Below are positions 723-64,000 of a stretch of 64,000 bases of DNA, piece after piece. This stretch comes from a virus. The stretch covers positions 7,355 to 71,354 of the IMG/VR virus record IMGVR_UViG_3300022752_000056; one strand, 5' to 3'. Numbering within the stretch: position 1 is the stretch's first letter; every line of letters starts with the position of its first letter. The position numbers and the translations under genes were made by a program. The notes under the pieces are model-generated. The model was given only the letters and a program-made list of their open reading frames with translations. It did not search any database and was not told where the DNA came from.

Positions 723-730
723 ATATTTCT

Positions 731-979: not shown

Positions 980-1130
980 AATCTTTATCTTTTTTGTAAA
1001 AAATAGGTAAGATTCACACACATTAGGTCATAAAACAGACCGTTTTTGGCCTATTTCGCTTGTCCTTTTAAAAACCCTAGTAAATATATCACAATGCCTT
1101 GCCGCGAACCAATTAAGGAGATAACCCGCA

Positions 1131-2757: not shown

Positions 2758-2775
2758 GCCCGAGGAGAAAAACTA

Positions 2776-5062: not shown

Positions 5063-5089
5063 TTTTGTAGTTACGTACAGAAATAAATT

Positions 5090-5114
5090 AGCCCGAAGCA
5101 ATTCGGGCTTTTTT
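5090..5114 (+). terminator. Intrinsic terminator after the major capsid gene
   Basis: AGCCCGAA-GCAA-TTCGGGCT followed by a T-run. Confidence 0.9.
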
Positions 5115-5125
5115 ACCACTTCAAA

Positions 5126-5203
5126 TAAATAATGAGTCTAGACAAATTATGCGGCTCCCACCGCGTATGACCCTAGAACGGTCAAAGGAAAAGGAGAAAA
5201 CAA
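5126..5203 (+). promoter_or_regulatory. Late promoter box plus structured 5' leader (two hairpins, possible pseudoknot)
   Basis: TAAATA 5126-5131; TATGCGG/CCGCGTA stem; TGACC/GGTCA stem whose loop CTAGA is complementary to TCTAG at 5137-5141; AAGGAG SD follows. Confidence 0.65.
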
Positions 5204-13454: not shown

Positions 13455-13463
13455 GGAAAGATT

Positions 13464-13859
13464 ATGGCATTAATACCATTAAATTCGTTTAAAACAAAAA
13501 CAAAAATATTAACTGCATTTACAGCAACCACTGCAACTGTAAATGCCTACGTAGCTCCTATTGGTGTAACCAGTATTGTACTAATGGCACAGATAGCGAA
13601 TGTTACGACCGGTACACAGACTGTCACTGTAGTTCATTCAAGGAATAGACCTATTCTTGCAGATGCTCAAGGACAAGGCGCACAACCTGTAGGTGTTCAA
13701 ACTTTTTTAGTAAAAGATTTTTCAATTCCACAAAACGATGCAGGATCAGTGATAACAGGAAAATTAATTTTAGAACAACTAGACAGTATTAAGGCCTGGG
13801 CCAGCACAACTGGTACATTACAACTTACACTAAGTATACTAGAAACAGCCAATAATTAA
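13464..13859 (+). CDS. Small virion structural protein
   Basis: 131 aa, beta-rich, in operon with the giant protein. Confidence 0.7.
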   Translation: MALIPLNSFKTKTKILTAFTATTATVNAYVAPIGVTSIVLMAQIANVTTGTQTVTVVHSRNRPILADAQGQGAQPVGVQTFLVKDFSIPQNDAGSVITGKLILEQLDSIKAWASTTGTLQLTLSILETANN

Positions 13860-46562: not shown

Positions 46563-47753
46563 ATGTATATAGAAGACATCATAACACAAGTTTCACAAAA
46601 TTTTAACCACTTGAACAGATTTGATAAAACTATTGTATTGAGTTTTTCTGAGCAGATATATAATGGTAAAGGTTTTACAGAAAAACAATCACAATTGGCT
46701 GTAAAAATCCTTAATAGATATGCCAAACCCATAAATCTTTCTTTAGGGTATGATATTAAACCATTTATTACCAATCCTGTGTTTAAATTTCAATTGAGAA
46801 AAATTAATTTGGATAAAAAAATCTCAATTGATATAGATGAAAACAATGAAAAATATATTTCTGTAATTTTTCCATATGATGAAAAGTTAGTTCAAAAATT
46901 TAGGCAGGCCAAAGAAACTTTTAATCTTTGTATTTGGGATCCAGACAAAAAATGTTGGGTTTTTAGCATGGATGAGAGGTCAATTGCATTTCTTTTTAAG
47001 TTAAAAAATGAAATTGCTTTTGAAGTAGACGAGGAAATTCAAAATCTTTTCAAACAAGCTGAAGATATTTTTTCTAATATAGAAAAATATATACCTGTAA
47101 TTGACATTGATAATAATCAGGCAAAAATCATTAATAATTTACCTTATTTTCCTGAAATTTCGTCTAAAGATTTGTTAAAATCTGTCTTTTTAGCTCGTGA
47201 TTTATCAGTAACTACTTGGAGTGAACAAGTAGATATGTTGTTAAAAGAAAAAGTCGAAAATTTACCTATTTTAGAATTTTTAAATCACCCGCCTGGTGAA
47301 ATTTATCATTGGAATTACGAAAAATTCCCAGATGTTGTGCTTTATAACTTTTTAAAATACATCACTCCTGCCCTAATTATTGTTCCTGTAGGTGACGAAT
47401 TTAATATTGTAAGTTATATTGTAGAAAATTTGAAAAAAGTAGGAATAAACACCAGCGAAATTTCAGTATTATTTAGATTACCCAGTGATACAGGTATAGA
47501 ATTTAACAATTTTGTAAAAGATAACACCTTAAACAATATTATAAGCCAAAATATTAACTTTTTTATAATTTGCGGAAAATTTCCCAAGACATTATTACGC
47601 ACTGATGTTAAAATTAACAGTGTAATAAATTATTGTAGTACCAATGCACACTATACCATTCGAGAATTCGTACAAAATCACAAAAATGTTATTAACATGG
47701 TTAAAAAACATAATCAAAAGGAATTATTTTGGCCTCATGCAGAGTCATTATAA
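46563..47753 (+). CDS. Hypothetical protein with HARP-like motif
   Basis: FTEKQ..LA.KIL..Y and FPYDEKLV..F...WDPDKKCWVF; no Walker motifs seen. Confidence 0.6.
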   Translation: MYIEDIITQVSQNFNHLNRFDKTIVLSFSEQIYNGKGFTEKQSQLAVKILNRYAKPINLSLGYDIKPFITNPVFKFQLRKINLDKKISIDIDENNEKYISVIFPYDEKLVQKFRQAKETFNLCIWDPDKKCWVFSMDERSIAFLFKLKNEIAFEVDEEIQNLFKQAEDIFSNIEKYIPVIDIDNNQAKIINNLPYFPEISSKDLLKSVFLARDLSVTTWSEQVDMLLKEKVENLPILEFLNHPPGEIYHWNYEKFPDVVLYNFLKYITPALIIVPVGDEFNIVSYIVENLKKVGINTSEISVLFRLPSDTGIEFNNFVKDNTLNNIISQNINFFIICGKFPKTLLRTDVKINSVINYCSTNAHYTIREFVQNHKNVINMVKKHNQKELFWPHAESL

Positions 47754-49183
47754 AAGACGAAGTAAATGTCAAGATTGAAAATTTAGATCTTGAAACTAGA
47801 AAGGCTCTAGTAAAAAAATTTAAGTTTGAAGATCCTACAGCTAGGTATCGTCCTTCCTATAAATTAGGTCGTTGGGATGGTACTGTGAGCTTTTTTGGTC
47901 TAGGCGGCACCACCTATCTTTCAATGCTTCCTCAGGTTTTAGAATATCTAGAACAAAAGAATTATCAAATTTCGTTAAATGATCAGCGAGCAAATTTCGA
48001 GCTTGCATTTTCTAAAATTTCTGAGGATTTTTGGGGTGAAAAAACATGGCCCAAAGGACACGTTCATGAATTTCAAAGAATTATGTTGAGAGATGATCAG
48101 GTAGATGTTATTAATAAATTTTTAGAAAATCCACAATGCATACAAGAAATAGCCACAGGCTTTGGAAAGACCATAACCACTGCTACCTTGGCAAAATTAT
48201 GTGAAAAATACGGTAGAACTATCACCATTGTACCAAACAAAAGCCTAGTAGAACAAACTGAAGAAGATTTTATAAACTGTGGGCTTGACGTCGGGGTGTA
48301 TTACGGAGATAGAAAAGATATAGGATACACACATACCATTGCAACTTGGCAAAGTTTAAACATTTTAGATAAAAAATCTAAAGATGACGACGATATATTA
48401 AGCCTTGCAGAATTTCTTGAGGGTGTAAACTGTGTAATGGTAGATGAAGTTCACATGGCCAAAGCGGAAGTTCTTAAAAAATTACTAACACAAAATTTAA
48501 GTAATGCTTGTATACGTTGGGGACTTACCGGAACAGTACCTAAACAAGATTTTGAATTTCAAAGCCTACGTGCTAGTCTAGGAGAAGTAGTTAATAGAGT
48601 AGCCGCACATGAATTACAAGATAAAGGTATATTAGCAAACTGTAACGTAAATATTATTCAAACTGCAGAATGGAAAGAATTTGGAAGTTATAAAGAAGAG
48701 TTAAAATATCTCGTGACAGATGACCAACGAATGTGTTATATTAGTAAATTATGTTCAGAAATATCGGAGTCGGGAAATACATTAATTTTAGTGGATAGAA
48801 TAGAAAGCGGTGAGTTTCTTAATTCTAAATTAAAAGACTCAGTTTTTATTTCTGGAAAAGTTAAAACAAAGAATAGAAAAGAAGAATATGACGAAATTCA
48901 AACTGCTGATAACAAGATTATTGTGGCGACTTACGGTGTGGCCGCTGTGGGTATTAATATTCCTAGGATTTTTAATCTGGTTCTTTTGGAACCCGGAAAG
49001 AGCTTTGTCAGGGTTATACAATCTATTGGGCGAGGCATTAGAAGAGCTAAAGATAAAAACCACGTAGAGATCTGGGATCTCACCGCTTCTACCAAATATG
49101 CTAAACGTCATCTCACAGAACGTAAAAAGTTTTACAAGGATGCTCAGTATCCTTTTCAGATACAAAAGGTAAAGTATATATAA
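47729..49183 (+). CDS. uvsW: SF2 DNA helicase UvsW
   Basis: LRDDQ, ATGFGKT, VDEVH, GLTGT and QSIGRGIR motifs. Confidence 0.93.
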   Translation: MASCRVIIKDEVNVKIENLDLETRKALVKKFKFEDPTARYRPSYKLGRWDGTVSFFGLGGTTYLSMLPQVLEYLEQKNYQISLNDQRANFELAFSKISEDFWGEKTWPKGHVHEFQRIMLRDDQVDVINKFLENPQCIQEIATGFGKTITTATLAKLCEKYGRTITIVPNKSLVEQTEEDFINCGLDVGVYYGDRKDIGYTHTIATWQSLNILDKKSKDDDDILSLAEFLEGVNCVMVDEVHMAKAEVLKKLLTQNLSNACIRWGLTGTVPKQDFEFQSLRASLGEVVNRVAAHELQDKGILANCNVNIIQTAEWKEFGSYKEELKYLVTDDQRMCYISKLCSEISESGNTLILVDRIESGEFLNSKLKDSVFISGKVKTKNRKEEYDEIQTADNKIIVATYGVAAVGINIPRIFNLVLLEPGKSFVRVIQSIGRGIRRAKDKNHVEIWDLTASTKYAKRHLTERKKFYKDAQYPFQIQKVKYI

Positions 49184-49686
49184 TGCAAATTTTAACACTC
49201 GACAATAAAGCATTTTTTTTAAATGATCTACCTAAAGAAATAGAGGACGATATGAGGTTTTGTGTATTAGACAATACTGATCCACAAAACCCTGATTACT
49301 TTTTTATTCCATTAATTTTTTTAGAAAGTTTTACAGGACCAGCAGCAGTATTACAAATAGGTGATCAAGAAATTACCATGCCATTAGATTGGTGTACCAT
49401 AGTGGGGGATCCAGAAGTACCAGAAATGGAAGTGTTGCCATTAACCAGTCTAAATGATAGAGGATTTAAAACTTTCTGTTTTAACCCACTAAGTAGTTTT
49501 AAACCAGAATTTTTAGAAATTGATATTATAGATATATATCAGGACATAAAATGGTATTTTCCTAAAATGCGTTCAGGTCAATTATTATGCACCCCGATTC
49601 ATTCTGGAGATAAACCAACTTGTGCATATTTTGTCAAAGAAGTAAATCGGCAAAGTGAAATATTAGATTATACAAGATGCTGGTAA
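49183..49686 (+). CDS. Hypothetical protein
   Basis: 167 aa, beta-rich, coupled to UvsW. Confidence 0.7.
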   Translation: MQILTLDNKAFFLNDLPKEIEDDMRFCVLDNTDPQNPDYFFIPLIFLESFTGPAAVLQIGDQEITMPLDWCTIVGDPEVPEMEVLPLTSLNDRGFKTFCFNPLSSFKPEFLEIDIIDIYQDIKWYFPKMRSGQLLCTPIHSGDKPTCAYFVKEVNRQSEILDYTRCW

Positions 49687-49689
49687 ATT

Positions 49690-49941
49690 ATGAATAAATG
49701 GCCTTATATATTTGAAAGTCCAGATGGAGGCGAAACTGTTTACATAAGACAGTATGGAGAAACTACAAGAAAATTATATCATGTTTCTGATAAGGCCTTG
49801 GAAAAATCCAACGAATTGAAAGAGATAACCTTATGGCATGAAATTAGAAAAGCCGCTAAAACTGATGAGACCTTGCAAAAAGCCATAGAGCAAGTTAAAC
49901 TATTATATTACATAAAGACAAATAATGGCAGCAAAACTTGA
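49690..49941 (+). CDS. Hypothetical protein
   Basis: IFESPDGGETVY.R..G motif; 83 aa. Confidence 0.65.
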   Translation: MNKWPYIFESPDGGETVYIRQYGETTRKLYHVSDKALEKSNELKEITLWHEIRKAAKTDETLQKAIEQVKLLYYIKTNNGSKT

Positions 49942-50386
49942 CATAAAAAGAGAATTAGGAGCAGTTGATACTAGAAATTATGACTTCTATTCCGCCCTCA
50001 CAGAAGAAGAAAAAAAGGCATTTAGTCCATATGTCTTAATGAGGTATACATCCAATGTAAACTCGGATCGTGATGTACAAGAATGGTTTTTAGATACAAC
50101 CAATGAATATGTAAACAAACATCATTGGCTGTTAAGCAAAAACCATAAAGAACTTTTATGGAAATTATTTGCAGGCACCGGAACCGGTACAAAATTGTAT
50201 CATCCTTATCTAGCAGCGGGTAAAAAAACAAAAACTGATAAAATTGAAAAACTACTAGCAGAACTTCATCCAACTAAAAAATTAGAAGACCTAAAACTAT
50301 TAGCTAAACTTATGGATGATAATGATCGTAAAGAATTGTTTGATAATCTTGGATTCGATGACAAGCAAAGAAAAGAATATTTGTAA
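49925..50386 (+). CDS. Possible clamp-loader small subunit (gp62-like)
   Basis: FSPYVLMRY.S..N..KHHW pattern and size resemble gp62; no gp44/gp45 in the window to confirm. Confidence 0.4.
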   Translation: MAAKLDIKRELGAVDTRNYDFYSALTEEEKKAFSPYVLMRYTSNVNSDRDVQEWFLDTTNEYVNKHHWLLSKNHKELLWKLFAGTGTGTKLYHPYLAAGKKTKTDKIEKLLAELHPTKKLEDLKLLAKLMDDNDRKELFDNLGFDDKQRKEYL

Positions 50387-51082
50387 ATGATTGAAACTAT
50401 CGAACAACCGTACAGTTGTAAACATTGTAATAAAAGTTTTATGAAGGAGAAAACTCTTATTGCTCATATGTGCGAACAAAAAAGGCGAATACTTCAAAAA
50501 GATGAAAAGCGTGTCCAAGCAGGGTACATGGCTTATAACAGATTTTATACATTAACACAAAATTCAAAAAAAATAAAGACCTATGAAGAGTTCTGTGAAA
50601 GCAGTTATTATAACGCTTTTGTAAAATTTGGTAGTTTTATTAACAATGTTAACCCATTGTATCCGGATAAATTTATAGATTATGTGATAAAAAGTGGCAC
50701 CAAATTAGATCACTGGTGCAGAGATGAATTATACGAAACCTATCTATTAGAAATGCTAAAGGTAGAACCAGTAGAAAGTGCTGTACAGAGGTCATTAGCA
50801 ACTATGATGGACTGGGCAGACAATAATAATTCACAATTTAATCACTATTTCAATTATGTCAGTTTGAACAGAGCGGTACACGATATTATAGATGGAAAAA
50901 TAAGTCCTTGGATTATTCTAAATTGTAATTTTGGTAAAACCATGCTAAGTAAAATGAATAATGAACAATTAGACATGATTACCAATGTGATAGACATACC
51001 ATTTTGGATGAAAAAATTTAAAGAACTACCTGCGGAAGTGGCATTGGTGCGTGAGATATGTAAAGAAACAGATATTAAATGA
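50387..51082 (+). CDS. Hypothetical protein with N-terminal C2H2/C2HC zinc finger
   Basis: YSCKHCNKSFMKEKTLIAHMC. Confidence 0.7.
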   Translation: MIETIEQPYSCKHCNKSFMKEKTLIAHMCEQKRRILQKDEKRVQAGYMAYNRFYTLTQNSKKIKTYEEFCESSYYNAFVKFGSFINNVNPLYPDKFIDYVIKSGTKLDHWCRDELYETYLLEMLKVEPVESAVQRSLATMMDWADNNNSQFNHYFNYVSLNRAVHDIIDGKISPWIILNCNFGKTMLSKMNNEQLDMITNVIDIPFWMKKFKELPAEVALVREICKETDIK

Positions 51083-51282
51083 CAAACATTAGGGTAGAAA
51101 ATATTCCTCCAGGTTATATTTTAGAAATGGTAAGAGATATGAAAGCAGAAAACCTAGATTTTACCTTTTCATATCATCCTAGTACCTGGACAGAAAATTT
51201 TATAAAAATACCAAATTTTACGATTTTTTCGTTTCCTAATGCAAGAGATGCAACATACTTTATTCTAAAATGGAAAGTATAA
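51079..51282 (+). CDS. Hypothetical protein
   Basis: 67 aa ending F...DATYFILKW, a common small phage protein ending. Confidence 0.6.
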   Translation: MTNIRVENIPPGYILEMVRDMKAENLDFTFSYHPSTWTENFIKIPNFTIFSFPNARDATYFILKWKV

Positions 51283-51686
51283 TGAATAAAATTCTAATTA
51301 ATGGTACATTTGACATTTTACATCTGGGACATATAAATCTATTAAGGCATGCTAGATCTTTTATAAATTCTTTTGTATATGTATTAATAGATAGCGATCG
51401 TAGAGTAAAAGAGTTAAAAGGATATAATCGCCCAGTTAATAATGAATATCACAGAGCCAGTATGTTATTTGGTTTAAAATATGTAGACAGAGTTGACATA
51501 TTTGATACTGACCAAGAACTTATAAATTACATAAAAAACTTTACGCCAGATATCATGCTAAAAGGTACCGACTACAAAGGTAAAGATATCATAGGGGCAG
51601 AATATTGTAAGAAAATAGAATTTTATGATAGACTTGAAAAATATTCAACTACTAATATAATTCAAAGTATTCTTAATCAACAATAA
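51282..51686 (+). CDS. HIGH-family sugar-phosphate nucleotidyltransferase (RfaE domain II / TagD-like)
   Basis: NGTFDILHLGH, DSDRRVKELKG..RP, PD...KG.DY and YSTT motifs. Confidence 0.88.
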   Translation: MNKILINGTFDILHLGHINLLRHARSFINSFVYVLIDSDRRVKELKGYNRPVNNEYHRASMLFGLKYVDRVDIFDTDQELINYIKNFTPDIMLKGTDYKGKDIIGAEYCKKIEFYDRLEKYSTTNIIQSILNQQ

Positions 51687-51742: not shown

Positions 51743-52312
51743 ATGCCTGATATTGACATAGATTTTGCAGACAGATCAAAAATACTGTCGCTAATACAAC
51801 ATGTACCTGCAACATTAACAAATAATAAAAAACATAATACCGGTATATATGTACATGATATACCTATAAACCCTTTGACCAATCAGGCCGCTATTGATTA
51901 TGAAACAGCGGAAAAAAGAGGCTATTTTAAATTAGATTTTTTAAATGTAGGTATATACAAAGATATACGCGACGAAAAACATCTACTATCTCTAGCCAAT
52001 AAGGAGCCATTATGGGAACTACTAGAACAGGACGATTTTACCAACTTACTCTTTCACGTCAACGGACATGGTACTATATTAAGAACAATGAAACCAAAGA
52101 CGATCGTCCAACTAGCGGCAGTTTTGGCTATGATACGTCCAGCGAAACGCTATCTGATTGGGAAAGATTGGACTACAGTGATGAAGGAAGTTTGGAACAA
52201 ACCTGAGGGTGATGAATATTATTTTAAAAAATCACACGCAGTAGCCTATGCCATGGCAGTGGTTGTACAGATGAATCTTATTTGTGAATCTATTTCGTAC
52301 GAATATTCTTAA
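51743..52312 (+). CDS. Miniature DNA polymerase III alpha (DnaE/C-family)-like protein
   Basis: MPDIDIDF, KHNTGIYV, GYFKLDFLN, LAAVLAMIRP and YYFKKSHAVAYA occur in DnaE order within 189 aa. Confidence 0.85.
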   Translation: MPDIDIDFADRSKILSLIQHVPATLTNNKKHNTGIYVHDIPINPLTNQAAIDYETAEKRGYFKLDFLNVGIYKDIRDEKHLLSLANKEPLWELLEQDDFTNLLFHVNGHGTILRTMKPKTIVQLAAVLAMIRPAKRYLIGKDWTTVMKEVWNKPEGDEYYFKKSHAVAYAMAVVVQMNLICESISYEYS

Positions 52313-52670
52313 CGGTTCTTACCAACTGAATACTTTTACGTTTAACTCGTTTTTCTGTAATGTCATTTAGATTAACAATAGGTCCAAATAAGACTGATAC
52401 ATCCTTAATATTAAAAGTTTTTATTAAAGGACGAAAAACATACATTTCTTTTCTAAGGAAAATATTAATTGGTATTTTACGATTGCTTTCCCACCACCAT
52501 ACTTCGCCTAGTTCTAAAAACTTTTTACGATCTTCCTCTCCTCGTACCATGGAAAGATCATAGATACTGACAACACTGTTGTCGAAATTGATTATTATTC
52601 CTACGTACTCTTTATCATTAGATTTTATACAACTGATAAACGGAAAATTGTCTTGAAATTTATTGGACAT
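52290..52670 (-). CDS. Hypothetical late protein
   Basis: WWWESNRKIPINIFL motif; minus-strand TATAAATA at 52710-52717. Confidence 0.65.
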   Translation of the reverse strand: MSNKFQDNFPFISCIKSNDKEYVGIIINFDNSVVSIYDLSMVRGEEDRKKFLELGEVWWWESNRKIPINIFLRKEMYVFRPLIKTFNIKDVSVLFGPIVNLNDITEKRVKRKSIQLVRTVKNIRTK

Positions 52671-52691
52671 CCTAGCGATAAATATTAAATT

Positions 52692-53528
52692 ATGCAAATT
52701 ATACCAGTCTATTTATATTCTAACACAATTGACGCTCAATTAGATTTGGATAACACCCTGCGAGGAGTTAACACTGTCATGTATCAAAGAGATCTAAAAA
52801 TTCAAAAATCATTGAAAAATCAAATTCGTATACAGTTTAAAAACAGTGACCAAAAAAAGATTAGAATTTATAATACACAGACATTTGTCTTTTCAATGTT
52901 TGACAGTGTAAATCAGCAACAGGTTCTTAGTAAAAATTTAGAAGTAATAGATGTTAATACCACTGCTACTAAAGGTTTAGCCCTGCTGACTTTATCAGAA
53001 AGCGACACAGCAGATTTAGAAAAAGGTAGTTATAATTATGCTATAAAGATGCAAGACGCTACAGGCAGCTATGTTCCAACCTATTCAAATGCATGGTTTA
53101 GTGTAGCAGGTGTTTTACATATCGAAAATGCTGGAGAGCCTATATTCAAAGATAGTATAAGCATAACTACCTTTACTAAATCTTATGTAGATGTAAACTC
53201 AAGATATGAACATTCTAGCGGTAATATCTATGCTCAACCAGAATTCAATGGCAATAATGCCATACAAACAGTGGCATTTTATATGACAGGCTATAAAGGT
53301 ATGGTCAGAGTAGAAGGAACTTTAGATAATAGCCCAGGCGCCAGTGGTAATTACACATTAATAGCAAATAGAGGTTATGATAACTATACAGGTGTGGATA
53401 CCCTAAATTTTACAGGTGTGTATTCTTATATTAGATTCATCCACATACCAAATCAGGGTCCAGGAGATCCTGATAATGATAATCCTAGTTACTACGGATC
53501 ATTTGACAAAATTCTCTACAGAAGTTAA
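52692..53528 (+). CDS. Hypothetical late (probably structural) protein
   Basis: Beta-rich 278 aa; late box 7 nt upstream. Confidence 0.65.
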   Translation: MQIIPVYLYSNTIDAQLDLDNTLRGVNTVMYQRDLKIQKSLKNQIRIQFKNSDQKKIRIYNTQTFVFSMFDSVNQQQVLSKNLEVIDVNTTATKGLALLTLSESDTADLEKGSYNYAIKMQDATGSYVPTYSNAWFSVAGVLHIENAGEPIFKDSISITTFTKSYVDVNSRYEHSSGNIYAQPEFNGNNAIQTVAFYMTGYKGMVRVEGTLDNSPGASGNYTLIANRGYDNYTGVDTLNFTGVYSYIRFIHIPNQGPGDPDNDNPSYYGSFDKILYRS

Positions 53529-53537: not shown

Positions 53538-54539
53538 ATGAATCTCATACAATCAAGTCTTATTGCAGCCTTACCACCTAAACGTAAATCAACACCCAGC
53601 GGTTGGATAAGTTTCAATGCTCCTTGTTGCCATAATCGAGGAGAATCACATGACCGTAGACAACGAGGTGGACTGCTGATCAATTCGTCTGATAATAGTT
53701 TTCAATATCACTGTTTTAATTGTAATTTCAAAGCAGGATGGAGACCTGGGCAATTATTAACAAAAAACACACGACAACTTCTCTCATGGCTAGGTCTCGC
53801 AGAAAACGATATAGCCAAATTAAACTTATATGCGTTGAAAATCAAAGACCAAGAACACACACAGCAAGATCATATAATAAAACAAATAAAAGAAAAACCA
53901 TTACCTGATAATAGTAAACCAATTGAAACCTGGCTAGAAGATGATACGCATAGAGATCAACTTATACCAATAATTGACTATATTACAGACATAAGAGGTA
54001 TGAATTGGGCATGGTACACTTGGTATTGGAGTCCTCAGGCAGGATATCATGATAGAGTAATTATTCCCTTTTATCTCAACGATACCATAGTAGGTTATAC
54101 AGCGAGAAAAATTAATCCAGGTAAACCTAAATATATCACAGATAGTCAACCTGGTTATGTATTCAACATAGACAAGCAATGCGATGAAAGACAATTCATC
54201 ATATTAGTCGAAGGACAATTCGATGCAATCAGTGTAGACGGTTGTGCTATTATGACCAATGATCCTGGTAAAGAACAAATATTAAGATTAAAAACACTTA
54301 ACAAAGAAATCATCGTAGTACCAGACAGAGATTCAGCAGGTGCCAAACTCATACAAGCTGCGATAAACAATGATTGGTCAGTCAGCCTGCCGCCTTGGGA
54401 AGAACACTGTAAGGATGTAGCCGATGCTGTGAAACTCTACGGTAGACTTTATACAATGATAACTATTTTGCATTATAAACAGTCAAACAAATTGAGATTA
54501 GAATTAATGAAACGAACATTGGAAAAACATGGCCAGTAA
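53538..54539 (+). CDS. g61: DNA primase (gp61-like)
   Basis: Zn-binding PCCH...YHCFNC, RVIIPF, GYTAR, PKY, and TOPRIM VEGQFDA and PDRD motifs. Confidence 0.92.
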   Translation: MNLIQSSLIAALPPKRKSTPSGWISFNAPCCHNRGESHDRRQRGGLLINSSDNSFQYHCFNCNFKAGWRPGQLLTKNTRQLLSWLGLAENDIAKLNLYALKIKDQEHTQQDHIIKQIKEKPLPDNSKPIETWLEDDTHRDQLIPIIDYITDIRGMNWAWYTWYWSPQAGYHDRVIIPFYLNDTIVGYTARKINPGKPKYITDSQPGYVFNIDKQCDERQFIILVEGQFDAISVDGCAIMTNDPGKEQILRLKTLNKEIIVVPDRDSAGAKLIQAAINNDWSVSLPPWEEHCKDVADAVKLYGRLYTMITILHYKQSNKLRLELMKRTLEKHGQ

Positions 54540-55935
54540 CTATTCCTACGACTTACAAAAACTTTATTTAGAAATGTTTCTAAGTGATGCAGAAACATTT
54601 GCTAGGTGCCAAAATATATTTGACCCGGAAAACTTTGATCAAAGACTAAGACCAACTGCGGACTTTATACTAAAATACAGTGATCAATACAAGATCATGC
54701 CCGAAGTAATACAGGTCAACGCAGCCTGTCAAGAAAATCTAGATAGAGTAAACCTACCAAAAGAAAATTATGAATGGTTATTAAACGAATTTGAAGAATT
54801 TAGTAGACACAAGGCCTTGGAACGTGCAATAATCCGTAGTGCCGATCTGTTAGAAAAAGGTGACTATGGACCTGTAGAGAAACTGATTAAAGAGGCTATA
54901 CAGGTCAGTTTGAACAAAGACATGGGCACTGATTATTTTGAAGATCCTAGGGCCAGACTCAGTCAACTTAAAGACAGTAATGGACAGATATCCACAGGAT
55001 GGCCCACTGTAGATAAAAAACTCTATGGTGGTTTTAATCGAGGTGAATTGAATATTTTTGCTGCGGCATCAGGAGGAGGTAAGAGTTTATTCTTGGCCAA
55101 CCTTGGCGTAAATTGGGCCTTGGCCGGTCTAAACGTGATTTATCTAACTTTTGAACTTTCAGAAAATCTAGTGGCCATGAGATTAGATTCGATGATCACA
55201 GGAATTTCAACTAGAGAAATATTTCGTAATATAGATGATGTTGAATTAAAGGTAAAAATTCTAGGTAAACAAGCAGGTAGTATACAGATAAAATACATGC
55301 CTTCAGGTAAAACCTGTAACGATATACGTGCATATTTAAAAGAATATCAAATTAAAAAACAAATAAAACCAGATGTACTACTGATAGATTATTTAGATCT
55401 TATGATGCCTCTAAGCGTGAAAGTTTCACCCAGTGATTTATTTGTCAAGGACAAATATGTATCAGAAGAAATACGTAACCTAGCCATGGAAACTCAGTGT
55501 ATCACAGTCACAGCCAGTCAGTTAAATCGTTCGGCAGTGGAAGAAATTGAATTTGATCATAGTCATATCAGTGGTGGTTTAAGTAAAATACAAACCGCAG
55601 ACAATGTCATAGGTATCTTTACCAGCCGTGCTATGAAAGAACGGGGACGCTATCAAATACAATTTATGAAAACACGCTCTAGTTCAGGTGTGGGTCAAAA
55701 AGTAGATCTTGAATTTAATCAAGATAGTCTGAGAATCACTGACCTAGGTGAAGAATCATCTCTCTCAGACACACAGTCAAAAAGTTCTACCATAGCAGAT
55801 AGTCTACGTAGAACCAGTACGACCATGGATACTACTACCGCTGAACATACACTGCCACGAAAACCACAGAAAAAAGCAGCCATGGAGGATATTAGATCAA
55901 TGATAATGAACTCAATTAACCCAGAACAGGACTAA
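54529..55935 (+). CDS. g41: Replicative DnaB-like helicase (gp41-like)
   Basis: AASGGGKS, FELSE, IDYLDL, TASQLNR and KTRSS motifs. Confidence 0.95.
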   Translation: MASNYSYDLQKLYLEMFLSDAETFARCQNIFDPENFDQRLRPTADFILKYSDQYKIMPEVIQVNAACQENLDRVNLPKENYEWLLNEFEEFSRHKALERAIIRSADLLEKGDYGPVEKLIKEAIQVSLNKDMGTDYFEDPRARLSQLKDSNGQISTGWPTVDKKLYGGFNRGELNIFAAASGGGKSLFLANLGVNWALAGLNVIYLTFELSENLVAMRLDSMITGISTREIFRNIDDVELKVKILGKQAGSIQIKYMPSGKTCNDIRAYLKEYQIKKQIKPDVLLIDYLDLMMPLSVKVSPSDLFVKDKYVSEEIRNLAMETQCITVTASQLNRSAVEEIEFDHSHISGGLSKIQTADNVIGIFTSRAMKERGRYQIQFMKTRSSSGVGQKVDLEFNQDSLRITDLGEESSLSDTQSKSSTIADSLRRTSTTMDTTTAEHTLPRKPQKKAAMEDIRSMIMNSINPEQD

Positions 55936-56497
55936 ACCAATTGCAGATTTCTTCTTGAGCATGGCAGTCAATGATCTTACGCCACTGAGAATCTTCATCG
56001 TAATCAAAAATTAAACTGGTCGTGGGTCTTATCACGCTCCAAGTATGTTCAACACTCCAGGGACTACGGCCACTGAGCTCACCTTCTAAGAACCCACCTA
56101 GCCAACGTTGACAACCAGCTATCACACGATATTGTCTAGGACCTTGGCCCTGAGCTATGTCCTTTAATATACTAGGATCATAGCTTATACCAAGGTCATT
56201 ACCAATACTGTGAGTGCTCTTGCAGGTGTAATCCAATGTGTGTATCAAGACTAATCTATTGGTATGTTCTGTTCCACCTCGGTATACAGGTTCATTTCCT
56301 ATGTATCCGTGTATACCAAGATTGGTCATGATCATGCTCAAATCCAAACTCATACTCTTGGCGTCAATTCTATAGGCCATGGCCTGCGAAGGATCATGCT
56401 CGGCTACAAGGAAAACAGATCTTGTAAAATCTTTATCCTGTCTACGAGGATGAGCTGCAATTAAATGATTTACTAGGTTTACGGGTTTAATTATCAT
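55916..56497 (-). CDS. algH: YqgE/AlgH (DUF179) family protein
   Basis: LIAAHP..D..F.RSV.L..EH, VYRGG, IH, G...W..G.LEGEL, W......LIF and W motifs. Confidence 0.8.
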   Translation of the reverse strand: MIIKPVNLVNHLIAAHPRRQDKDFTRSVFLVAEHDPSQAMAYRIDAKSMSLDLSMIMTNLGIHGYIGNEPVYRGGTEHTNRLVLIHTLDYTCKSTHSIGNDLGISYDPSILKDIAQGQGPRQYRVIAGCQRWLGGFLEGELSGRSPWSVEHTWSVIRPTTSLIFDYDEDSQWRKIIDCHAQEEICNWFSPVLG

Positions 56498-58970: not shown

Positions 58971-59282
58971 ATGCAAAACATACTAAACGCAAGTTTAAGC
59001 GCAAACTATTTAGAAGCATTTGAAGAACTGTGTGCTGAGAACATACATGCAGACATAGATGACATAGCAGCAGAGCTCATCGTACGCTTTGAGCGTGAGT
59101 TCGCAGAATACTTGCGAGGTTGCGACAGCGAAGACGTAGGTGCTGTTATTATATACTTGCGTGGGGGAGAAGAAGTTGCGTTCTTTGACTATGAGAACTT
59201 TCACGGGAGTGTGTACGAGTTGGGACACAAGAGAGCTAGTGAGACTAGCGTAGAATGGGCAGAGCGTGTGGGAGCACTGTAA
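58971..59282 (+). CDS. Early acidic hypothetical protein
   Basis: First ATG after the tandem promoters. Confidence 0.65.
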   Translation: MQNILNASLSANYLEAFEELCAENIHADIDDIAAELIVRFEREFAEYLRGCDSEDVGAVIIYLRGGEEVAFFDYENFHGSVYELGHKRASETSVEWAERVGAL

Positions 59283-59602
59283 TGCACACAGTTACACTAA
59301 ACACAGAAGAAGCCCCCAACAAATGGTGGGCTGCTAGAGATGCTCGTATGCGCAACTATGCTAACTCAACACGCTATGACTCTGCTACACGGATTAGAGC
59401 AGAGCGTATGAAGTTGGTCTTAGAGATGTTGTATCATGCTCGTAGTGTGTATATAGCATATGGCAAGCGTGGGGTGTCGCTCAAAGTAGATCGTGCTCAT
59501 GTGCGAGATCGTAGAGAGCTGGCTGCTATGGAAGCGGACTGGGCTGTGCAGGGTGTAGTAAAGCGAGTAAGCGAGCAGGGTGTGATCTATCGCTTTGCTT
59601 AG
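59282..59602 (+). CDS. Early basic hypothetical protein
   Basis: TAATG coupling with GGGAG SD. Confidence 0.65.
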   Translation: MHTVTLNTEEAPNKWWAARDARMRNYANSTRYDSATRIRAERMKLVLEMLYHARSVYIAYGKRGVSLKVDRAHVRDRRELAAMEADWAVQGVVKRVSEQGVIYRFA

Positions 59603-59618
59603 GTGTTGTTAGGTCGAT

Positions 59619-59646
59619 AAAAAAGGCGCTTCATGCGCCTTTTTTT
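59619..59646. terminator. Bidirectional intrinsic terminator between convergent early units
   Basis: AAAAAAGGCGC-TTCAT-GCGCCTTTTTTT. Confidence 0.9.
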
Positions 59647-59650
59647 GTCT

Positions 59651-59696
59651 CTCTAGATCGCTCCCTCGTTCTCTAGATCGCTCCCTCGTTCTCTAG
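59651..59696 (+). repeat. Perfect 20-bp tandem duplication CTCTAGATCGCTCCCTCGTT
   Basis: Two exact copies plus CTCTAG. Confidence 0.95.
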
Positions 59697-59900
59697 CTCT
59701 TCCACTGCTTCGTGCATCAGACTCTGCCATAGGAACACATCGTTGGCTATACGTTGGTCTTTCTTTCGCTTGCCCAACTGTGTGCCCTTCTGGTAGATGC
59801 TCCATATGTGGCACTCGCAATAGCTTCGGTTGGGCAGCGCTGGTTCTTGGCATCCCGTTTCCGGATCGCCTATCCACTCACAAATCATTTGCTTTCCCAT
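59673..59900 (-). CDS. Small Cys/His protein resembling the GcrA C-terminal domain
   Basis: CEWIGDP...C..PA.P..SYC..H...IYQ. Confidence 0.55.
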   Translation of the reverse strand: MGKQMICEWIGDPETGCQEPALPNRSYCECHIWSIYQKGTQLGKRKKDQRIANDVFLWQSLMHEAVEELENEGAI

Positions 59901-60115
59901 TCTTTGATCATCCTTTTCACTTTCTCTTGTTCACGTTCTGTCATCCTAAGATAACGGCTAAGGGCATCGGCTGCACCATACTGCTGGCCTTCTTGTCTGC
60001 TCAGTAGATCTGCACAGACAAACAGGGCCACGATCATTATGGTGCCCAACCAACCAATCTGGAAGGCATCTAGCGTTAGAGCCAGTGCCGTCCACAGTCC
60101 TATACGAGTTAGCAT
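59885..60115 (-). CDS. Small membrane protein
   Basis: Two hydrophobic segments followed by a charged tail. Confidence 0.6.
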   Translation of the reverse strand: MLTRIGLWTALALTLDAFQIGWLGTIMIVALFVCADLLSRQEGQQYGAADALSRYLRMTEREQEKVKRMIKEWESK

Positions 60116-60984
60116 CGCTTCATACAGGTGGTCTTAGCCATCATCTGCCACGTGGTAGGAAAGCTCTTCTTGAGGCCTGCCAACTTGAGCACCATGCGCA
60201 GGCTAAGCTCGCGCAACTTGTCCTTGTTAGCCTCCACAAAGTCAATCAGCTCATCCTGCACACAGGGCTCAAAATCATAGCTGGCCAACATCTCGTTCTG
60301 CTGGATGACCTGTCGGATACGTAGCATCTTCTCACGCTGGGTGTCCATCTGCAGATCAATGTAGTGACAGCGGCTTTCCAAGGCATTCAAGTGATCACGT
60401 AGTTTCTTTGACTTCACATGCTCAAACTTGATGTTGGTGATAAAGATCGCGGAACCCTTGAACTCAAAGCGATTAGGCACTCCCTCACTGCGTAGCAGTC
60501 GGCTGTCCGTGTTCCACGAGATGAAACGACGCTCGCTTGAGTCCAATGCGCCCTTGAGCACGTTCAGTGAGATCTCATCTAAAAGCACGGAGTCGCAGTC
60601 ATCAAACACCACAACGTTGCCCCGTTCTGAGAACTCGTAGAGCTTGGAGTAAAGACCAATGGCACTCATTGCGCCCTTGACGATCTCAAACTTTGGCTTG
60701 CGTTCTGCCAAGGTATCAAACAGGCCGTCCTTTTGCAGCACGGCCTCAACACCGTAACTCTTGCCCACACCTGGGGGACCTGACACGATCATGGCAGTGA
60801 TGTTGCCTTGCTTGACTGCCTTGGTCATCTCGGTAAGGATTGTGAAGCGCTCGCCTAGGCGCTCTAGGATTTCTGCATCCGACTCTTTGGCAACCTCTTT
60901 CTCACGCATGAGGATGATGTTGCTGTCTAGTTCCAGCGAGCTGACTTCTGCTTTGGAGGGTTTGGTATTGGCTTTACGTGCCAT
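60109..60984 (-). CDS. P-loop (AAA-like) ATPase
   Basis: IVSGPPGVGKS Walker A, VVFDDCD Walker B, IFITN sensor, SR finger; AGGAG SD. Confidence 0.85.
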   Translation of the reverse strand: MARKANTKPSKAEVSSLELDSNIILMREKEVAKESDAEILERLGERFTILTEMTKAVKQGNITAMIVSGPPGVGKSYGVEAVLQKDGLFDTLAERKPKFEIVKGAMSAIGLYSKLYEFSERGNVVVFDDCDSVLLDEISLNVLKGALDSSERRFISWNTDSRLLRSEGVPNRFEFKGSAIFITNIKFEHVKSKKLRDHLNALESRCHYIDLQMDTQREKMLRIRQVIQQNEMLASYDFEPCVQDELIDFVEANKDKLRELSLRMVLKLAGLKKSFPTTWQMMAKTTCMKRC

Positions 60985-61021
60985 TTGGTTCTCCTGTGTG
61001 TTTATTTAAGTGTGTATTATA

Positions 61022-61234
61022 CTATCGATTCTTAATGTAGTCAATGACTTGTTCAGCCAAATCTGTTGCCATGTAAGAGTCCAGACTCACTGCGGTCATC
61101 ATCTCATAGACTATGCGGGCGTCCTTGCCATAGTGGCGGAGTACGGCTTCCACATCACCTTGGGTGTGGCACTTATTCCACATGAAGTCTGCTATGATCC
61201 GTTGGTTTTTGGTTAGTCCGTCTATAGCGATCAT
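61022..61234 (-). CDS. Early hypothetical protein
   Basis: 70 aa, GAGG SD. Confidence 0.6.
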   Translation of the reverse strand: MIAIDGLTKNQRIIADFMWNKCHTQGDVEAVLRHYGKDARIVYEMMTAVSLDSYMATDLAEQVIDYIKNR

Positions 61235-61235
61235 A

Positions 61236-61421
61236 TTAGACCTCGTCCTGTAACATCATCATGCTAAGGCTAAACATGGCGCCTGTTACCAGTGCTAGGC
61301 TCAGCAGTTCCAGTGCTTGGTTGATGCCAAAGTCTGGACCTGCCTCTGTTATACCGCCTGCAATGCTGGCCAAGCCCGTCAGTGCAATGCCAAATCCTAG
61401 TGCGCCTAATGTCTTTCTCAT
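61236..61421 (-). CDS. Small two-TM membrane protein
   Basis: Hydrophobic 61 aa; AAGGAG SD; own promoter. Confidence 0.65.
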   Translation of the reverse strand: MRKTLGALGFGIALTGLASIAGGITEAGPDFGINQALELLSLALVTGAMFSLSMMMLQDEV

Positions 61422-61490
61422 TTCTTACTCCTTTGTTTCAGTGTGTTCGTAGTATAGCACGGGGTTGACAGTGTGTCAACCCCTTTATGG

Positions 61491-61703
61491 CTATCGTGCC
61501 AAGGCCTTTACCAAATCGTTTTGGAGCTTGTGGACTTCGTCGTAGTCCACAAAGAAGTCTGTCTTTGGGTCCCAGTATTGCCCTGCCCGGGGGTCGTAGT
61601 AAAGGACTCGCCCGTTTGAGTAGATGTAAGGTCCCTCCAAGCCCCGGCGCTGCTCGAAGCCTTGGAATAGGTCTGCGGTCTTGCCCAAAACTCGGTAACC
61701 CAT
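61491..61703 (-). CDS. Early protein with aromatic YYDP/YWDP repeats (OCRE-like)
   Basis: GLEGPY..NGRVLYYDPRAGQYWDPKTDFF; start MGYRV with AGGAG SD. Confidence 0.65.
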   Translation of the reverse strand: MGYRVLGKTADLFQGFEQRRGLEGPYIYSNGRVLYYDPRAGQYWDPKTDFFVDYDEVHKLQNDLVKALAR

Positions 61704-61771
61704 GTGCTGCTCCTGTGTGTGCGTGTCATGTTCGTATAATAGCAAAAAGATTAGGGGCTGTCAACCTGTTG

Positions 61772-62110
61772 TTATTTGAACACACGTTGAGCAAAGGACT
61801 CTTCAGTGTCATCAGCCTGGACTAGAACGAATCCTGAGCCCTCGCCAAGGTCCGTTTCGCGGATTTCCAAGCCACTCTTTGCGGCTTTGAGCGCCTTATT
61901 GACTAGGCTAAGAGCATAGCGGCCGCCATGATAGAAACTATCAAAGTGTTCGTCCTGGGAGAAGCCCATCTTCTTTACCACCCGCCCAGTGTCCAAGTCA
62001 TCTGAACTGAGCACCACAAACCTGTCAACCTTCCGCCACTGCTTAGGGTCCATAAAGTCAAAGTGATCGGTGACTTCGTTCATGTCAAAATCTTTAAACG
62101 TGATCTTCAT
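61772..62110 (-). CDS. Early hypothetical protein
   Basis: Own promoter cassette and AGGAG SD. Confidence 0.7.
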   Translation of the reverse strand: MKITFKDFDMNEVTDHFDFMDPKQWRKVDRFVVLSSDDLDTGRVVKKMGFSQDEHFDSFYHGGRYALSLVNKALKAAKSGLEIRETDLGEGSGFVLVQADDTEESFAQRVFK

Positions 62111-62179
62111 CTTGTGCTCCTGTGTGTTTAGTGTGTTCGTATAATAGCAAAAAGATTAGGGGCTGTCAACCTGTGGTAG

Positions 62180-62350
62180 TTATACAACATAGGCCTTGGC
62201 CAGGATGTGCTCCAGCACTGCGACCTGCTTAGGGCTCAAACGGCCTGTGTGGTCATACTGCTGGATCATCTTAGCGGCAAACACGTGGTCATACTGGTCT
62301 AGGCGGTCCAGCATGTCTATGATCTCTGCTATCAAAAACCCTTGTTCCAT
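62180..62350 (-). CDS. Early hypothetical protein
   Basis: Start MEQGF with GGAG SD; LSPKQ motif. Confidence 0.65.
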   Translation of the reverse strand: MEQGFLIAEIIDMLDRLDQYDHVFAAKMIQQYDHTGRLSPKQVAVLEHILAKAYVV

Positions 62351-62431
62351 CTTGTGCTCCGTTGTGTTCATCATAGTCGTATAATAGCAAAAACTCAGTG
62401 GGCTGTCAACCTGTTGTAGGCTTGCCACACT

Positions 62432-62608
62432 TTATCTGTAGCCACTACCTGCTTCTTGTTCGTAGGTTGTGTCAGTGGGATCCCACTCAATGACAAAGTC
62501 CTTATGAACAATAAAAGACCCTGCACCGTGTGCTGTGGGTGCCAGTTCAATCATGTCACCTAAGGTGCTGATCACAAAGTATTCAGCACCTTTGTATATG
62601 GTCATCAT
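62432..62608 (-). CDS. Early hypothetical protein, 58 aa (not in the ORF track)
   Basis: MMTIYKGAEYFVISTLGDMIELAPTAHGAGSFIVHKDFVIEWDPTDTTYEQEAGSGYR; fills the gap between cassettes. Confidence 0.55.
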   Translation of the reverse strand: MMTIYKGAEYFVISTLGDMIELAPTAHGAGSFIVHKDFVIEWDPTDTTYEQEAGSGYR

Positions 62609-62609
62609 C

Positions 62610-62810
62610 TTATTCGTCCTCTTCTACGAACTCGTTGAGGAAAACGTCACCCATGTCATAGTCCTCGTAAGCCTGCTCAAGCACCTCAGCAAAGGCCGTG
62701 TCCACCCAGTCCATAGGAACGTCATACTTGACCGCTATCTGCTCCAGCGTGAGTTCTGCGCGGTATATCTCGTTCTGTAGTTCTACCATTACGTCTTTCA
62801 ATCTTGCCAT
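62610..62810 (-). CDS. Early acidic protein with HTH-like segment
   Basis: LTLEQIAVKYDVPMDWV; start MARLK with GGAG SD. Confidence 0.65.
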   Translation of the reverse strand: MARLKDVMVELQNEIYRAELTLEQIAVKYDVPMDWVDTAFAEVLEQAYEDYDMGDVFLNEFVEEDE

Positions 62811-62887
62811 TTTACGCTCCGTTTTGCTAGTGTTTGTGTAGTATAGCACAACAAGCCCACGCTGTCAACCTGCTGTGCTAATAACCC

Positions 62888-63175
62888 TTAGCCCAATAGG
62901 GCTTTTACACGCACGTATTCACCACCACCAACTCGCAATTGCCAATTGCACTCGCTACTCGTGCGCTTCACTTTATTCGTGTAGCCTGCTAAAAAAAGCA
63001 TAGTCTCAAGTTCTTTAGCCAGTGCGTCTGCTTCTCGTTTGCTATAAAGCCTAAACGCAACATGCCGCAAGTTATCGTCCTGCTTGCACTTGTCTGTAAA
63101 AGAGCCAGCATAGCCAAAACTCTTCATGTTAATGAAACGTGCAAACAGACGCACAATTTTAGTCGTTGCCAACAT
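62888..63175 (-). CDS. Early hypothetical protein
   Basis: Own promoter and AAGGAG SD. Confidence 0.65.
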   Translation of the reverse strand: MLATTKIVRLFARFINMKSFGYAGSFTDKCKQDDNLRHVAFRLYSKREADALAKELETMLFLAGYTNKVKRTSSECNWQLRVGGGEYVRVKALLG

Positions 63176-63255
63176 ATATAACGCTCCTTGTTGTTTACTA
63201 CGCTTGCATTATAGCAAAAAACAATAACCCTGTCAAGTGCAGGGTTATTTGTTGT

Positions 63256-63432
63256 TTATGCGTTGAGCGTAAACTCCTCTACATTACGCTCAATGTCCAT
63301 GTCCAGCTCCTGTGCAAGCTCCTCAAGCGCAACGAGTGCGAGGGCACGTGACTGATAAACGCCAATGTTATAAAAAACATCCTCGCGTTCCCCAATCCCC
63401 AGGGCTTGTGCTACAAATAATTTAATTGCCAT
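63256..63432 (-). CDS. Early hypothetical protein, 58 aa (not in the ORF track)
   Basis: MAIKLFVAQALGIGEREDVFYNIGVYQSRALALVALEELAQELDMDIERNVEEFTLNA; GGAG SD and own promoter. Confidence 0.65.
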   Translation of the reverse strand: MAIKLFVAQALGIGEREDVFYNIGVYQSRALALVALEELAQELDMDIERNVEEFTLNA

Positions 63433-63485
63433 TTAATGCTCCGTTTTGTTTACTATGCTTGCATTATAGCAAAAACAAATAGCCA

Positions 63486-63523
63486 TTGCAAGTGTAGTGT
63501 TATTTGTTGTTTTTTTACAACGG
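63486..63523 (-). repeat. 38-bp inverted repeat, right copy
   Basis: Partner of 58775-58812. Confidence 0.9.
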
Positions 63524-63594
63524 CCATGACATTGTTATATTATCTATATGACCATCAGGGAAATAGCCCTGTGGTTGACAGGGCTTGCTTTTTT

Positions 63595-63705
63595 CTATAC
63601 AGTCTGCTTCTTGCCCATTATGACCCTAGTGACGGGCAGGGGCAGCACAACATGAGGCTTCTGTTTGGTAGCAATCTGCAGCACCATCCACGTAATAACA
63701 TTCAT
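63595..63705 (-). CDS. Possible 36-aa peptide
   Basis: GAGGAG SD, MNVITWMVLQIATKQKPH..., followed by the AGCCCTGT/ACAGGGCT hairpin. Confidence 0.35.
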   Translation of the reverse strand: MNVITWMVLQIATKQKPHVVLPLPVTRVIMGKKQTV

Positions 63706-63715
63706 AATGATCTCC

Positions 63716-64000
63716 TCAGTCTGTGTGGGGTGGTAGTTCTACTTCTTCATCTAGATTCTCGTCTTCCCATTCAGCCATCTGTTCGCTGATACCCCATTCA
63801 TCGTCCAATTCTGCTCCAATGATGTCGCGCACGGTGTCTGCGGTGGCGCCCCCATACTCTGTGTAGTCGTCGTCAAAAAAGCTAGGATCGCCTGTGACGC
63901 GACCTACAAAACACATACCGGGTTCGTAGTAGGTAGCTTCTAGTTCAAAGCCCTGAGCACACATCTCACGATAGACTTCGATGGGTGGGCTCCACGCCGT
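63716..64000 (-). CDS. YubB/DUF1281-like ferredoxin-fold protein, C-terminal part (gene starts beyond the window)
   Basis: Frame open to the window end: TAWSPPIEVY...YYEPGMCFVG motif. Confidence 0.75.
   Translation of the reverse strand, partial: TAWSPPIEVYREMCAQGFELEATYYEPGMCFVGRVTGDPSFFDDDYTEYGGATADTVRDIIGAELDDEWGISEQMAEWEDENLDEEVELPPHTD

Follow-up and report, generated by a model that had tools for sequence, protein, structure and literature searches.

T4-related jumbo phages are already known to carry a DNA polymerase III alpha (Pol III alpha) that is both minimal and split. Iyer et al. (2021, Viruses 13:63, PMC7824862) describe such a split 'minimal Pol III alpha' in jumbo phages of group 2.2, which also have a family B polymerase; they suggest that the two enzymes cooperate in the synthesis of one strand or in repair, and propose the minimal enzyme as a model of the ancestral one. 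We have analysed a 64,000-nucleotide stretch of viral DNA (the window; positions 7,355 to 71,354 of IMG/VR record IMGVR_UViG_3300022752_000056) with a focus on one gene, whose product of 189 amino acids (aa) we call the C-unit. This gene very probably encodes the C-terminal unit of a two-polypeptide minimal Pol III alpha of T4-related (group 2.2) jumbo phages, most likely an accessory polymerase. The arrangement is the one reported in 2021: a small protein runs from the Mg2+-binding DxD strand onwards and includes the template-binding part, an N-terminal nucleoside triphosphate-binding protein (here the N-unit) is encoded at a distance in relatives, and a family B polymerase is encoded in some of these also. 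Measured against that description the window is a new copy and not a new kind, with the partner gene not recovered from this fragment. Full-text literature searches returned no bench test of the split enzyme; the terms 'DNA polymerase' and 'gp220' do not occur in the main text of the PA5oct omics paper, and the papers on phages Sharanji and RsoM2USA give annotation lists only.

Like E. coli Pol III alpha (2HNH, 5FKW) and PolC (3F2B), the C-unit has a palm and finger fold, and it keeps the RP and KSH motifs together with the catalytic residues of the E. coli enzyme (D3, D5 and D65 corresponding to D401, D403 and D555, and K63 to K553). It differs from bacterial DnaE and PolC in having neither a PHP domain nor a thumb, and about 88 finger residues are gone between RP and KSH. 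Relative to DnaE it ends at approximately E. coli residue 784, without the clamp-binding motif, HhH, OB or tau-binding tail, and the half of the palm that bears the GS loop (E. coli 277-393) is placed on a separate polypeptide. For a palm of the C-family type, the helix and GS loop ahead of the DxD strand are needed as well. The C-unit has no such complete one-chain palm (GS loop plus three aspartates) and falls below the gathering score of PF07733. Production of one C-family polymerase from two distant genes is familiar from the intein-split DnaE of cyanobacteria, in which the halves are joined by trans-splicing. The phage enzyme shares the two distant genes but differs in that neither half has an intein match in Pfam and there is no room for an intein at the junction between N-unit and C-unit, which excludes trans-splicing and leaves the halves as two unligated chains.

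The motifs of the C-unit stand in the same order as in DnaE (PDIDIDF, KHNTG, KLDFL, IRPAK and KKSH), at residues 2-8 (M-PDIDIDF), 30-34 (KHNTG), 63-67 (KLDFL), 128-135 (LAMIRPAK) and 161-170 (FKKSHAVAYA). Their counterparts in E. coli alpha (1160 aa; dnaE of NC_000913.3 as the reference for spacing) lie at 400-406, 510-514, 553-558, 639-642 and 757-760. The distance from PDxDxDF to KHxxG is 28 residues in the C-unit and 110 in E. coli alpha, that from KHxxG to KxDFL 33 against 43, from KxDFL to RP 69 against 86, and from RP to KSH 30 against 118; after KSH, 24 residues remain to the end of the chain as opposed to 400. Between F8 and K30 there are 21 residues, whereas the E. coli interval comprises about 100 and includes the thumb. 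These short spacings indicate that the thumb and most of the fingers have been deleted from the C-unit.

The likeness of the C-unit to C-family polymerases is far beyond chance. Residues 3-183 match positions 8-194 of phrog_11778 ('DNA polymerase', 197 positions) with E 3.7e-62, the DnaE-like phrog_405 (1190 positions) matches with E 1.5e-8, and in hhalign residues 51-135 correspond to E. coli 541-642 (E 1.1e-4), with K63 on K553, D65 on D555, R132 on R639 and P133 on P640. The sole match in Pfam was DNA_pol3_finger at E 0.14 (11.9 bits against a cut-off of 22), PF07733 gave no match at E up to 1 in the protein or across the whole record, and a plain sequence search of the PDB with the C-unit found nothing but Mycobacterium DnaE1 (5lew), at E 0.42 and with the match broken into four collinear segments.

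An AlphaFold2 model of the C-unit, based on an 85-row alignment, reached a predicted local distance difference test score (pLDDT) of 96.6 and a predicted template modelling score (pTM) of 0.88. The top 16 chains in Foldseek (best E 6.9e-4) and the best 16 rows in VIA-align consisted entirely of Pol III alpha and PolC chains; in VIA-align these aligned over 171-187 of the 189 residues at Z 6.2-9.7. Mycobacterium DnaE1 (5lew, 419..808; 182 residues aligned, root-mean-square deviation 3.7) and Taq alpha (3e0d, 461..841) scored Z 9.7, PolC (3f2b, 971..1358) Z 9.6 and E. coli alpha (2hnh, 400..784) Z 8.9, and the next unrelated chain Z 3.5. The fold match is confined to E. coli 400-784 and, combined with the hhalign placement, identifies the C-unit as this segment minus about 200 residues, the loss being in essence that of the thumb and much of the fingers. 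No PHP, clamp-binding, HhH, OB or tau-binding region is present. A first-pass annotation of this DNA had described a 189-aa protein with the five motifs in order, all three catalytic aspartates, about 20 residues between the first two motifs and none of the PHP, clamp-binding, HhH or OB domains, and had proposed modelling against Pol III alpha; that description holds throughout, and the model agrees with it.

For the partner, phrog_405 was searched against four large related contigs (G001-G004, 56-83% complete) and phage Phosso. A second small open reading frame (ORF), the N-unit, was found in four of these five relatives, at 163, 184, 167 and 224 kb from the C-unit gene. It matches phrog_405 at positions 359-436, directly preceding the matches of the C-unit at 438-454, 578-678 and 774-809. 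The N-unit of G001 (168 aa, C-terminus ...GVGRGSSVASYVLYIIGVHKIDPIKYNLDWQDFLR) reaches PF07733 with 49 bits against a cut-off of 23.9; its residues 98-167 align with E. coli alpha 323-392, and R137-G138-S139 with R362-G363-S364. In its AlphaFold model (pLDDT 87.9), residues 69-168 superpose on E. coli 277-393 (Z 9.0) and residues 70-168 on PolC (Z 10.3). Because the N-unit ends at E. coli 392/393 and the C-unit starts at 399/400, the chain is interrupted somewhere in E. coli 393-399, in the loop that leads into the catalytic strand. The GRGSS motif is invariant in 65/65 N-units, and 5690 of 5701 scored candidates match the family at E 0.001 or better. The first 64 or so residues of the N-unit form an extra part without a match in DnaE structures. 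The gene stands in a conserved block of its own, in which a small gene and a GroES-like chaperonin gene come after it, in that order, and in RaK2 a gp44 clamp-loader gene after these.

In the light of these findings the chain is not the self-contained 'polymerase core' of the first-pass headline, for it lacks the N-terminal half of the palm and its GRGS loop (E. coli R362-G363-S364). The alternative listed last in that annotation, one part of a split polymerase, is the one borne out by the relatives, in which an N-unit of about 168 aa is a separate gene product. Its suggestion to look for other DnaE pieces succeeded in four of the five relatives and failed in this 71-kb record. A family B polymerase, also to be looked for, occurs in relatives (a frame of 1013 aa in Phosso and frames of about 890 aa in G002 and G003), and none was found in this fragment, G001 (83% complete) or G004.

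The two halves also appear to belong together. Cultured phages that have the C-unit have the N-unit as well in nearly equal numbers: genus tallies of records with N-unit and with C-unit are nearly equal (Escherichia 34/34, Pseudomonas 11/11, Klebsiella 10/11, Erwinia 8/8, Salmonella 8/8, Xanthomonas 4/4, Yersinia 4/4), and the genes lie about 34 kb apart in RaK2 and about 44 kb apart in PA5oct. Prediction of a complex from the alignments of the G001 N-unit and the window C-unit gave a score of 0.91, with 0.01 for the best of three controls; the pair passes a score mark that is reached by 116 of 157 solved complexes and by 2 of 215 mismatched pairs. The prediction runs agree in at least 98% of contacts, with partner pLDDT of at least 90, and in the predicted interface residues 129-142 of the N-unit, GRGSS loop included, touch residues 2-9 of the C-unit, the DxD strand. 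A weaker pointer to pairing is a natural fusion, P0258 (375 aa), in which the halves are joined in DnaE order: residues 79-180 are 37% identical to the N-unit (E 1e-19), residues 189-362 are 31% identical to the window C-unit (E 2e-29), and PF07733 spans the junction (residues 97-207). A joint alignment of P0258 with both units was not used, as MAFFT put the N-units over the C-terminal part.

The Alishewanella phage Slickus01, with a genome of 141 kb that is below the jumbo limit, carries a 203-aa C-unit and, about 10 kb upstream on the same strand, a 98-aa coding sequence (CDS). The sister phage Slicko01 matches the GS-loop part of the N-unit (residues 98-166) at the position of this CDS. With a C-unit and a candidate partner CDS in Slickus01, the split enzyme is not confined to genomes larger than 200 kb.

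Both units are very common among environmental phages, including those of freshwater. A tblastn search found a C-unit in 96 phage records, 94 of them at 80% query cover or more and all at less than 60% identity; the records listed (40 of the 96) are jumbo phages, except Slickus01 and one 94-kb record. Identity to the C-unit is 51% in Sinorhizobium phage Phosso, the closest cultured relative, whose protein is annotated 'DnaE-like DNA polymerase III alpha', 50% in Atu_ph07, 46% in the PA5oct group and about 38% in the RaK2/121Q/GAP32 group. All 8000 of the 8000 scored candidates matched at E <=0.001, and the 120 listed among them are 187-209 aa long and 71-100% identical. An exhaustive search of 50%-identity representatives yielded 436 clusters at E <=0.001, 273 at <=1e-10 and 68 at <=1e-30, with complete C-units among the listed representatives measuring about 180-215 aa. 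Longer, fused relatives were sought, with two matches only, both chimera-like: P0121 joins the front of a C-unit to a helicase tail, P0122 joins an unrelated front to the back of a C-unit, and both were set aside.

The C-unit gene is under purifying selection. It is intact in 80 of 80 related IMG/VR loci, at 188-195 aa and with zero internal stops. The ratio of nonsynonymous to synonymous substitution rates (dN/dS) has a median of 0.15 (range 0.04-0.26) over the 264 of 3240 pairs that were usable (dS between 0.05 and 1.5), and lies between 0.056 and 0.21 for the window against 14 of its 15 closest loci, dS not being computable for the remaining one. Residue conservation was counted in 86 sequences, namely the window protein and 85 listed representatives of 175-235 aa, leaving out 65 listed matches that are fragments save one long form. 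In this set K63 and D65 occur in 86/86 sequences, D3 and D5 in 84 (with gaps in the other two), D7 in 82, H31 and G34 each in 83, R132 and P133 each in 85, K162 in 79 and H165 in 83; a second alignment gave the same picture. Near-identical DNA occurs in freshwater and lake metagenome runs from 13 studies, with some bins of the examined sequencing runs without cover and no RNA dataset among the runs listed. Two studies without a mark as possible source have Logan contigs that bridge one gene end each (X7 record 12, 51599-52294; X8 record 19, 51756-52760, the latter with zero differences). The search for same-length homologues and the dN/dS estimate proposed in the first-pass annotation thus favour its view of internal trimming under selection over a pseudogene, and the misassembly of a full-length dnaE that it had named as one of the refuting outcomes is contradicted by the bridging contigs.

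These data bear on several other explanations. The gene might be what decay or faulty assembly has left of a full-length dnaE, or might encode a non-catalytic pseudoenzyme, as could be supposed from its failure to be recognized by Pfam and from a length far below that of any cellular DnaE; however, the intact loci, the low dN/dS, the invariant catalytic residues, the sheer number of matching candidates and clusters and the bridged gene ends already contradict this explanation, which we regard as scarcely credible. It is also very unlikely that the 189-aa chain by itself is a complete catalytic core. Such a stand-alone miniature polymerase would agree with the retention of the three aspartates and K63, with the confident folding of the isolated chain and with the lack of a partner in this 71-kb record, but the palm segment equivalent to E. 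coli 277-393 is not in the C-unit and sits on a co-occurring protein with invariant GRGSS, and both the P0258 fusion and the confident predicted interface put the GRGSS loop on C-unit residues 2-9. Finally, the two-part enzyme may be real and yet be a template-independent terminal transferase or another nucleotidyltransferase. The pol-beta-like superfamily holds many non-polymerase transferases, the duplex-holding thumb, HhH, OB and clamp-binding parts of Pol III alpha are all gone, and the relatives already have a family B replicase. This explanation nevertheless seems very unlikely given that the C-family-specific finger motifs RP and KSH are nearly invariant and that every relative examined has the gene within a conserved set of replication genes, which extends from the UvsW-like helicase to the primase and DnaB.

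The two-polypeptide Pol III alpha that we favour draws on the homology of both halves, the position of the split, the conservation of catalytic residues on each side of it, the co-occurrence of the halves in relatives and the purifying selection; from these we infer physical assembly, catalytic activity and a biological role for the combined enzyme, and for assembly as a heterodimer the support is computational. A number of observations weigh against it. A phrog_405 search of all 71,354 bases of this record gives the C-unit only, no GRGSS-bearing ORF or N-unit was found near the AAA+ gene at the end of the window, and G004 (56% complete) shows no N-unit in the same search. Pairing in this phage is deduced from its relatives, as the record is an estimated 19% complete and the partner gene was not found there. 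The complex prediction used the N-unit of a relative and not that of this phage, and its pass may reflect likeness to the solved single-chain structures of Pol III alpha; even by itself the C-unit gives a confident fold. The fusion P0258 is a singleton from one contig of 2,415 bases; the search for its relatives gave 18 stretches in viral_contigs and 259 in metagenome_contigs, none of them confirmed. In addition, a polymerase that has neither thumb nor clamp contact may bind primer-template poorly.

In the two-chain enzyme, the C-unit would supply the beta-strands with the three metal-binding aspartates (D3, D5, D65) and K63, together with a trimmed finger subdomain bearing the RP and KSH motifs, and so would hold the two metals and contact the template. 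The N-unit would supply the other half of the pol-beta-like palm, with its GRGSS loop binding the triphosphate of the nucleotide to be added. A non-covalent association of these chains is predicted, in which the GRGSS loop packs on the DxD strand to restore one active site. Since a family B replicase, a clamp loader, a primase and a helicase are encoded by these phages too, the product is most likely an accessory, non-proofreading DNA polymerase that works beside the family B replicase and is not the main replicase, and because it has no thumb, clamp contact or proofreading domain it should be distributive and error-prone. Its role is most plausibly primer extension, gap filling or recombination-linked synthesis.

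The polymerase gene also contains a nested ORF of 64 codons in frame +2, preceded by a Shine-Dalgarno-like hexamer (Table). An ORF of 62-71 codons is kept here in 71 of 81 homologous genes (77 distinct sequences), compared with 1.14 expected from synonymous-codon shuffling; its ATG occurs at the homologous site in 76/81 and a Shine-Dalgarno-like motif upstream in 64/81. The ten homologues without the ORF have no AAGGAG-type hexamer in the upstream sequences printed. At eligible sites, defined as host codons where a T-ending synonymous codon would make a stop in the nested frame, T-ending codons in the 71 ORF-bearing genes number 13/720 inside the ORF and 1096/2078 outside it; in the ten genes without the ORF the figures are 29/114 and 162/300. 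The nested frame is clearly being kept open by selection, and the ORF is a candidate overprinted gene. Other observations speak against a conserved product: it is a median of 45% identical to that of the window, against 81% for the host frame over the same region, and the proportion of synonymous differences (pS) in the host frame is not lower inside the nested ORF (0.781 versus 0.767 outside, both saturated). The product has no Pfam match, and its best PHROG match is insignificant (E 0.24). This conserved ORF sets the genes of the freshwater clade apart from the previously described system, as PA5oct, RaK2 and Slickus01 do not have it; in Phosso the frame is open for 57 codons at this position.

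Table. Features of the window and of related records, with coordinates in the record named.
Feature	Record	Position	Strand	Basis and remarks
C-terminal (Mg2+- and template-binding) unit gene of split minimal DNA polymerase III alpha, 189 aa (very probable)	window	51743..52312	+	ATG-initiated ORF; phrog_11778; AlphaFold; VIA
PDIDIDF strand	window	51746..51766	+	D3, D5 = E. coli D401, D403 (metal-binding DxD); D7 = D405; E. coli PDFDVDF 400-406
KHNTG palm motif	window	51830..51844	+	= E. coli KHAGG 510-514
KLDFL	window	51929..51943	+	K63 = E. coli K553; D65 = D555, third catalytic aspartate
RPAK finger motif	window	52136..52147	+	= E. coli RPGP 639-642 (hhalign)
KKSH finger motif	window	52226..52237	+	on E. 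coli NKSH 757-760, by motif register only
Nested 64-codon ORF, frame +2, overprinted gene candidate	window	52012..52206	+	ORF list
AAGGAG Shine-Dalgarno-like hexamer	window	52001..52006	+	5 nt before the ATG of the nested ORF
UvsW-like helicase	window	47729..49183		PHROG annotation
Three conserved function-unassigned genes	window	49183..51082	+	167 aa (phrog_11279), 153 aa (phrog_11758), 231 aa (phrog_11058)
67-aa ORF and cytidylyltransferase-like gene	window	51079..51686	+	PF01467 E 4.9e-15; phrog_7878
Convergent gene, 135 aa	window	52290..52697	-	phrog_11637; 23-nt overlap with 3' end of polymerase gene
Primase	window	53538..54539		PHROG annotation
DnaB-like helicase	window	54529..55935		PHROG annotation
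AlgH-like (DUF179) gene	window	55916..56497	-	PF02622 E 9.5e-21
AAA+ gene	window	60109..60984	-	
N-unit	G001 (L088)	1477..1983	-	
N-unit	RaK2 (L104)	4779..5297		
N-unit	PA5oct (L105)	4953..5462		
C-unit, 203 aa	Slickus01 (L102)	12875..13486		
98-aa CDS	Slickus01 (L102)	2559..2855		same strand as C-unit

The source, a linear IMG/VR virus record of 71,354 bases (completeness by CheckV estimate), is a fragment of an uncultured freshwater T4-related jumbo phage. PHROG annotation of 54 ORFs in the window gives the gene set of a T4-related myovirus, with structural genes (T4-like portal, prohead protease, major head protein, sheath, tube and terminase) and genes of replication and recombination (gp32-like single-stranded DNA-binding protein, UvsX, UvsY, UvsW-like helicase, primase and DnaB-like helicase). 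This gene set and synteny with Phosso, RaK2 and PA5oct place the window among T4-related jumbo phages. The order UvsW-like helicase, small genes, C-unit gene, convergent small gene, structural protein, primase and DnaB is common to the window, Phosso, RaK2, PA5oct and Slickus01; the primase and helicase noted nearby in the first-pass annotation are part of it, as is the UvsW-like gene.

The small convergent gene that overlaps the end of the polymerase gene has an overlapping counterpart after the C-unit in Phosso, RaK2, PA5oct and Slickus01. Atlas look-ups of two neighbouring proteins returned viral hypothetical clusters only, apart from a weak LSM/Hfq-like lead (0.80-0.85) for this 135-aa protein. 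The three upstream genes may be part of the functional block of the C-unit; in PA5oct, genes of 167, 155 and 235 aa directly precede the C-unit in the same order. The 231-aa protein has a sub-threshold C2H2 zinc-finger match at residues 9-29. The 67-aa ORF and the cytidylyltransferase-like gene, which stand between this upstream block and the C-unit, are without counterpart at the corresponding position in PA5oct. The AlgH-like gene lies just past that of the DnaB-like helicase. G+C content rises from 0.29-0.42 at 48-58 kb to 0.45-0.52 at 59-64 kb, and numerous small unassigned ORFs occur at 59000..64000 beside the AAA+ gene; this high-G+C stretch could represent an island of foreign DNA or else a chimeric end of the contig.

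Here we have added to the published system an exact split point, a natural fusion, figures for selection, confident models of both halves and a supported interface. The halves lie 10-224 kb apart in separate conserved blocks, the C-unit in the UvsW-primase-helicase block and the N-unit beside the GroES-like gene. A tentative and rather doubtful extension is that activity is gated by assembly, such that a C-family site of about 270 residues, without thumb or clamp contact, would form only when both blocks are expressed and would act at primase-made primers or recombination intermediates, with an overprinted 64-residue product made from the same DNA in the freshwater clade. If this were true, no C-family polymerase that works would be smaller, and nature would have made a two-piece enzyme without the help of inteins. 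Among known versions of the bacterial replicative polymerase fold, the split enzyme of these phages would be the smallest.

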